Below are positions 61,117 through 61,270 of a DNA stretch of 64,000 nucleotides, in pieces. Each line of letters starts with the position of its first letter. The stretch's first letter is position 1. The stretch is from contig CAZSCV010000004.1 in assembly GCA_964605525.1 (NCBI GenBank), positions 38,667-102,666 of the forward strand, given 5' to 3'. The stretch is from an uncultured Bdellovibrionales bacterium (GTDB lineage: Bacteria; Patescibacteriota; Minisyncoccia; Moranbacterales; UBA9337). The position numbers and the translations under genes are program-made. The notes under the pieces are model-generated. The model was not told the DNA's origin and made no database searches. It was given only the letters and a program-made list of their open reading frames with translations.

Positions 61117-61270
61117 CTTTCCGAAAAATAATAAATTTTTCTTTTTACTCACGTCTTTGTGCGTATAAATAAAGAACTTTATTCCTGAACCAACCGATGT
61201 TTTACAAAGAAAGAATAAACTGACCAAAAGGGACGGTTGGAAAAAGAAAAATTTATTATTTTTCGGAAAG
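61117..61270. mobile_element. 154-bp element with 24-bp perfect TIRs (copy B), 54 bp upstream of tig
   Basis: Same termini and internal stems as copy A; ~88% identity, differences concentrated in loop regions. Confidence 0.55.

Follow-up and report, generated by a model that had tools for sequence, protein, structure and literature searches.

The 154-nt element in the spacer between ppa and tig, here called copy B, is in our assessment likely (roughly 70%) to be a non-autonomous, MITE- or REPIN-like mobile hairpin element of a new family in CPR bacteria, whose mobilising mechanism we infer. The host of the family is a Moranbacteria (Parcubacteria, CPR) genome. In the window, by which we mean the whole 64-kb stretch of DNA that was analysed, the family has three members and one remnant, and one more member is found in a close relative, R. 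We favour mobile DNA over an inherited RNA because the repeats are bounded, because orthologous sites are found both filled and empty, because the corresponding spacers of sister genomes hold unrelated elements, and because the assembly of R breaks inside a family arm. The features on which this reading is built are the following.

61117-61270, plus strand: copy B, complete 154-nt hairpin element between ppa and tig, aligning to copy A at 90.9% identity with no gap
61117-61146: left arm of copy B, CTTTCCGAAAAATAATAAATTTTTCTTTTT, a 30-nt inverted repeat free of mismatches
61241-61270: right arm of copy B, AAAAAGAAAAATTTATTATTTTTCGGAAAG
61153-61163, plus strand: core motif 1, GTCTTTGTGCG, present in all three members
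61224-61234, plus strand: core motif 2, CCAAAAGGGAC, 71 nt beyond motif 1 in all three members
26054-26207, plus strand: copy A, in the rpsR-efp spacer
47451-47595, plus strand: third, diverged member, between ftsH and tRNA-Val, both plus-strand genes
47451-47467 and 47579-47595: outer arms of the third member, putative host palindrome
47468-47578: core of the third member, 111 nt, putatively inserted
59668-59728: short 61-nt hairpin in the tig-clpP spacer, arms matching the outer stem of A and B
Element ends, for comparison with the ends of any cognate IS: TTTCTTAC.../CTTTCCGAAAAATAAT

Copies A and B share a bounded hairpin unit

Pairwise alignment of copy B with copy A is gapless over 154 nt, with 140/154 positions identical (local BLAST E = 4e-52), and when 100-nt flanks are added to both sequences the likeness breaks off exactly at the hairpin ends. 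The original prediction of a second full copy of an element with terminal inverted repeats (TIRs) is thus borne out. Its placement upstream of tig is likewise correct, since copy B starts 37 nt past the ppa stop codon and stops 53 nt short of the tig ATG (61063, minus strand). Copy A is found 25 nt past the rpsR stop codon and 62 nt short of the efp ATG. All four of these genes lie on the minus strand, and the core motifs of A and B read on the plus strand, antisense to them. The same sequence of copy B is present in three further assemblies of the host organism.

The TIR is perfect over 30 nt in both copies and continues imperfectly to 39 nt. When up to 3 mismatches are allowed, the window holds five occurrences of the 24-nt arm, where shuffled sequence leads one to expect 0.01; with at most 1 mismatch allowed, GTCTTTGTGCG is found exactly three times, on each occasion inside a family member. 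About 20 differences between A and B, all of the A/G or C/T type, had been reported earlier; we count 14, namely 8 transitions and 6 transversions, and 12 of them fall within the central 52 nt (positions 55-106; binomial P = 9.5e-5). The termini are indeed untouched, as had also been claimed, but the stems are not, for the stem pair 25/130 has changed on both sides in a compensated manner (position 25 from A to C, its partner 130 from T to G). Copy B folds at -48.4 kcal/mol as RNA (z = -8.0) and at -35.4 kcal/mol as DNA (z = -8.7). At 154 nt it lies within the size range of MITEs (roughly 50-500 bp, non-coding), and both A and B carry the terminal inverted repeats of that class. No direct repeats flank the 154-nt unit in A or B. 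Inside the stem the core is flanked by palindromic AAATTT in A and B and by AATATT in the third copy, as any palindrome would give.

Several simpler readings of the hairpin were rejected. A coding sequence, small peptide or type I toxin does not fit, as A and B share neither start codons nor frames; a 65-aa open reading frame spans copy B only and is broken in A. A promoter or terminator cassette was discarded on the grounds that no consistent sites were found and that the TATAAAT of A and B is missing from the third copy. Nor is the element a rod-like palindrome throughout, the interior past approximately position 39 being only as symmetric as shuffled sequence.

A third member has the core and a different outer stem

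A sensitive BLAST search found two 11-mers of copy A, GTCTTTGTGCG and CCAAAAGGGAC, recurring 71 nt apart in the spacer between ftsH and tRNA-Val. The resulting third member is approximately 70% identical to the core of A and B across 94 nt (E = 1.4e-4) and has a strong fold of its own (-49.5 kcal/mol, z = -8.5), and its outer stem of 29 bp is unrelated in sequence to the A/B stem. What A, B and the third member have in common is therefore a core of about 105-110 nt and not the termini, and this core carries GTCTTTGTGCG and CCAAAAGGGAC..TTGGAA, set within a long AT-rich perfect stem. All three are oriented on the plus strand, even though the third stands among plus-strand genes and A and B among minus-strand genes. 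In a consensus fold of the three copies, 11 pairs are changed on both sides; these are not evidence of covariation because the outer stems are not homologous, and a single candidate covarying pair is left, the inner pair 38:121 (C-G to U-A).

The short hairpin at 59668-59728 has 26-nt arms and a 9-nt loop, with an 18-nt exact match to the family arm at 59676-59693, and it keeps the GGTT of the right end of the core. From this resemblance it is probably an internally deleted copy of the family. We derived a covariance model from the three members; over 189 kb of the window and its relatives it returned bare hairpins and no further full member.

Orthologous loci of related genomes were retrieved by way of trigger factor, EF-P and FtsH homologues. 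At the ftsH-tRNA-Val site, the core is missing from two relatives, R and G, and nothing but a perfect 34-nt palindrome is present. The palindrome of G consists of GGATAAAACACTAAAAT joined directly to ATTTTAGTGTTTTATCC, which amounts to the third member's outer stem lacking the interior. As R, which is closer by protein identity, and G are both unfilled, parsimony favours a single gain of 111 nt precisely in the middle of the palindrome, and on this comparison the core was most likely inserted there. A 10-nt direct repeat, AAAATATTTT, is found on either side of the third member's core, and a precise deletion between these repeats could alternatively have produced the empty palindrome of R and G. 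The repeat flanking the core can be read as anything from TA up to AAAATATTTT, being palindromic and indistinguishable from the stem. Across the three species (47451-47467 and 47579-47595 in this genome; L019 2677-2718 and L008 20201-20234 in the relatives), the palindrome shows only compensated differences (T:A to C:G and G:C to A:T), and for this reason the hairpin seems to be maintained. The long 'TIR' may not be a transposase-recognised end; in the third copy, on the comparison with R and G, the outer stem is a host palindrome that was there before the core.

In species S (L020 7820-8086 and 12469-12550), a GIY-YIG open reading frame is located between ftsH and tRNA-Val, and near it lies a perfect hairpin with 28-nt arms, TGTCATTCCCGCGCAGGCGGGAATCCAG. 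The element found in the ppa-tig spacer of relative T (L025) has termini, TGTCATTCC, that resemble this hairpin of species S, TGTCATTCCCGCGCAGGCGGGAATCCAG.

The same spacers hold other hairpins in related genomes

The relatives compared at the ppa-tig spacer are listed below with their identities to the proteins of this genome.

This genome: ppa-tig spacer 61064-61307, holds copy B
Relative R (JGI 3300037810): tig 91%, EF-P 99% and FtsH 96% identity; spacer holds another, rod-like hairpin of 157-163 nt (L007 9779-10000)
Relative G (GW2011_GWE2_35_2-): tig 80% identity; spacer of 54 nt, empty (L008 9947-10000)
Relative S: tig 78% identity; spacer holds a fourth element, of the second MITE family described below (L026 5771-6000)
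Relative T: tig 77% identity; spacer holds a third unrelated hairpin of about 150 nt (L025 972-1226)

Four unrelated long hairpins thus occupy this spacer in four related Moranbacteria, a fifth relative is empty with 54 nt, and the four elements are placed at differing points along the spacer. The right flank of the T element still contains the entire G-like spacer. The hairpin type of R also fills the rpsR-efp spacer of R, and in a further relative the rpsR-efp gap is just 57-84 nt, as judged from spacer length. We considered and rejected homology between the core of our family and the R-type element of the same spacers, since local alignment scores stay within the range of shuffled sequence. 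Filled and empty states of orthologous sites are accordingly seen both at ppa-tig (G empty) and at ftsH-tRNA-Val (R and G unfilled), and unrelated hairpin families have been gained and lost among Moranbacteria with 77-91% trigger-factor identity. The hairpins that relatives have in these spacers stem from separate insertions and do not represent a functional RNA passed down by descent, and the ppa-tig spacer is a hot spot for insertion or else a place where a hairpin is selected.

A trace of the family itself is found in R at a third spacer. The R contig stops just past tig inside ...TTTCCTGAAAAATAATAAATTTTTCTTTTTCCA, which is the family arm followed by the first bases of the core (L007 11311-11343), so that the tig-clpP site has a full-type arm and core start in R versus the 61-nt hairpin in this genome. 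A contig that ends inside such an arm is a typical assembly break at a multi-copy repeat. A look-up of ClpP homologues for the other end of this R copy returned only contigs of the host organism. Given that the R contig ends in a family arm, the family predates the split of this genome from R.

A second MITE family in the same genome

The window also holds a 94-nt MITE of a second family at 49117-49210 (site 49111-49216), with 12-nt TIRs TAGGACTTACGC / GCGTGAGTCCTA and a 6-bp duplication, ACTTTT. In R and G this site is empty and has a single ACTTTT. The hairpin core of the second family occurs in a longer form at 8217-8319, is centrally shortened at 49117-49210, and recurs in species S, where the outer stems differ and one copy carries an additional insert at its apex; the loci compared in relatives are L019 at about 4240, L008 at about 18730, L020 5845-5927 and L026 at about 5790-5985. 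The empty sites and apex variants of the second family show that MITE-type insertion, together with gain and loss of DNA at hairpin apexes, is active in this lineage. The family of copy B resembles the second family in residing in the same genome, in its size class and in being absent from the orthologous site in R and G. It differs in that A and B are without classical short TIRs or a 6-bp target duplication outside the hairpin.

Mobile element or structured RNA

In classical MITEs the termini are normally the most conserved part, and the pattern seen here is the reverse: the outer stem is wholly different between A/B and the third copy, with conserved interior motifs. This counts against a simple mobile-element reading, as do the compensated stem changes, which are found at 25/130 between A and B and at several pairs in the R-type copies. 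The latter could equally reflect selection on a folded RNA or on single-stranded DNA. That no direct duplication surrounds the 154-nt unit, that the ten window ORFs tested contain no transposase, and that just three or four copies were seen also weighs on that side. We therefore weighed the possibility that the core is a structured non-coding RNA or cis-regulatory module that acts on efp, tig and tRNA-Val, with a conserved core and a long stem free to covary. The strong folds (z = -8 to -8.7) speak for it, together with two exact 11-nt motifs kept at fixed spacing between diverged copies, a consensus fold in which 11 pairs have changed on both sides, including the inner-helix pair 38:121, and an inner helix, GUCUUU/AGGGAC, that from its G-U pairs would form on the plus strand only. 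The apparent covariation of the outer stem is, however, non-homologous, and the stem of the third copy exists without the core in two relatives. At the same sites of close relatives the core is missing or swapped for unrelated hairpins; relative to the neighbouring genes its strand is antisense in A and B but sense in the third member; neither a promoter nor a terminator common to the copies was found, nor any Rfam match; and between A and B the middle 52 nt have drifted without constraint. We consider such an RNA improbable.

A related view is that the host selects for a hairpin as such, be it a terminator, an insulator or an RNase III site between cistrons, which has been recruited repeatedly and spread by recombination or gene conversion. 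It would account for the four different long hairpins in the ppa-tig spacers of four related species, for compensated changes that preserve pairing, and for the ftsH-tRNA palindrome with its compensated differences between this genome, R and G; moreover, RNase III is known to cut Correia elements in transcripts (PMC10969869). On the other hand, G has no hairpin in ppa-tig, a consensus scan is without a terminator-like site, and the differing positions within the spacer fit a permissive landing zone in a compact genome. The arrival of an identical 154-nt unit at unlinked loci is left unexplained by host selection, to which we give a low probability. A strict REPIN, in which a single-stranded DNA hairpin is moved without target duplication by a single-copy RAYT or an IS200-like HUH transposase, is to our minds similarly unlikely. 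The symmetry is that of REPINs, in that both ends are conserved, the spacer varies and compensated changes occur (PMC3116915), the ends of A and B lack a target duplication, and all copies are seen in one chromosomal orientation in a stretch of uniformly negative GC skew. Against this, co-orientation of four out of four copies is not significant (two-sided P about 0.125), the ends have no obvious short REP palindrome, and neither a RAYT nor a Y1 transposase is among the ten window ORFs tested.

The broader reading as a MITE- or REPIN-like mobile element is thus the one we prefer. More generally, no transposase or cognate IS was found among the same ten window ORFs. An enzyme encoded elsewhere in the genome would copy the unit into permissive intergenic spacers, and the hairpin apexes would afterwards gain and lose DNA readily. 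A, B and the copy of the closest relative have the outer stem in common as well, and each is therefore a copy of one composite that comprises stem and core. How such composites arise might be explained in two ways: the core may target the centres of palindromes, with the composite subsequently copied as one unit, or a hairpin-specific enzyme may act at the base of whichever stem is present. It is a rather speculative suggestion, and one that we hold to be doubtful, that the family is structure-targeting, that is, that a non-coding core of about 105-110 nt integrates precisely at the apex of existing perfect palindromes such as terminator-like hairpins, adopts them as a long 'TIR', and is copied onward as a composite. 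This would explain why, within each of three families, the copies have core and inner stem in common but differ in their perfectly complementary outer stems, and would, if true, point to a mobilising enzyme of CPR bacteria, specific for hairpins or single strands, of a kind not yet described.

As for effects on the host, copy B probably forms part of the transcript of ppa and tig. Its 30-bp stem would form in either orientation, and cleavage by RNase III, or slowing or termination of transcription, might follow. No host function of copy B in the transcript is required by the sequence data.

Comparison with known elements

Correia elements have long TIRs that enclose a core and lie next to genes (PMC2649163; PMC10969869). 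The Correia elements of Neisseria (CREE/NEMIS) share with our family the format of a non-coding intergenic repeat of about 100-200 bp with long terminal inverted repeats and a conserved core, the formation of a hairpin when co-transcribed, a position just upstream of genes, and a presence that varies between related genomes (PMC2649163; PMC10969869). Judged by the description of the Neisseria-type 26-bp repeat, our family has no sequence relationship to Correia elements, and it resides in another phylum. It also lacks the TA duplication, the flanks being ACAA and ATAG to the left and right of copy A, and TATC and TTTC to the left and right of copy B. The promoter, the IHF site and RNase III cleavage are features of Correia elements, and the outer stem of our family, in contrast to theirs, is not constant.

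REPINs consist of two conserved ends and a less conserved spacer, with frequent compensated changes (PMC3116915). Similar to these, our elements are non-coding and palindromic in layout, with a long hairpin predicted for their RNA or single-stranded DNA, and A and B are conserved at the ends and variable in the centre, a property shared by REPINs and MITEs (PMC3116915). They differ from REPINs in having ends of 30-54 nt rather than REPs of 16-25 nt, in the few copies seen, in the lack of a RAYT gene in the window, and in one copy with an entirely different outer stem.

Precedents for insertion at the centre or loop of an existing palindrome, with one repeat nested in another, are found among insertion sequences. 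IS1397 and ISKpn1 insert into the loops of REP sequences. In Coxiella, IS1111 inserts into the REP palindrome of QMITE2 (PMC10969869). These insertion sequences are autonomous and encode a transposase, unlike the unit inserted here, which is a non-coding core of 111 nt.

A full-text literature search on MITEs and the Candidate Phyla Radiation returned no account of MITEs in CPR genomes. CPR bacteria (Patescibacteria) have small, compact genomes, in which small mobile repeats have hardly been described. That hairpin families repeatedly land in the same few spacers beside core translation and proteostasis genes suggests that such genomes are less static than their size implies, and has practical consequences: assemblies break at such repeats, as in the relative whose contig ends inside one, and where a long AT-rich hairpin precedes a housekeeping gene in these organisms, a regulatory RNA should not be the default reading. 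Insertion at palindrome centres, if general, would offer a testable clue to the mobilising mechanism.

Database searches and further features of the window

Outside the Moranbacteria loci described above, searches for the family gave little. The exact 23-nt arm, searched in 185,579 species genomes, gave two single chance matches, in AT-rich Alphaproteobacteria MAGs. A gapped pattern of both arms, searched in JGI metagenomes, returned no copy of the family and one 155-nt hairpin with an unrelated interior (Ga0100403_1002395; L006 1342-1496). The latter has a perfect stem, identical 14-nt termini, TTCCGAAAAATAAT, and a GC-richer interior, and adjoins Topo VI-like genes; its termini are possibly a coincidence, as the search demanded those termini. 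The two core motifs together had no match in IMG/VR, and a BLAST search of phage and plasmid records with copy B gave nothing relevant. None of the three copies matched Rfam at the gathering score; a search relaxed to E values of up to 10 returned only generic models of miRNA precursors with long hairpins, at 25-39 bits versus thresholds of 74-140.

The window contains a diversity-generating retroelement (DGR) at 55850-58766, with a reverse transcriptase (RT) ORF at 55850-56890 on the minus strand, a template repeat (TR) at approximately 57245-57357, and a variable repeat (VR) at approximately 57684-57796, in the 3' end of the ORF 57693-58766 (minus strand). Nearly all mismatches between the two repeats pair an A in the template with another base in the variable copy. 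A retron or DGR RNA had been considered for copy B because of this nearby RT gene, and was rejected, since the RT is part of a DGR that has its own TR and VR and lies 4 kb away.

Lastly, four other features were observed. A group I intron match (86 bits) is located at 37382-37613 (minus strand) within a cluster of four tRNA genes at 36963-37857, and a match to the c-di-GMP-II-GAG riboswitch lies at 6619-6711 (minus strand; 43.1 bits against a gathering score of 40), upstream of the ORF 5829-6422. A tandem repeat at 63412-63525, with a 34-nt unit in 3.4 copies at 90% match, is found upstream of nusA. The region 1293-1989 contains a 196-aa ORF with PaaX_M and winged-helix domains (1352-1942, minus strand), and an inverted repeat of 40 nt lies on either side of this ORF, at 1293-1332 and 1950-1989.
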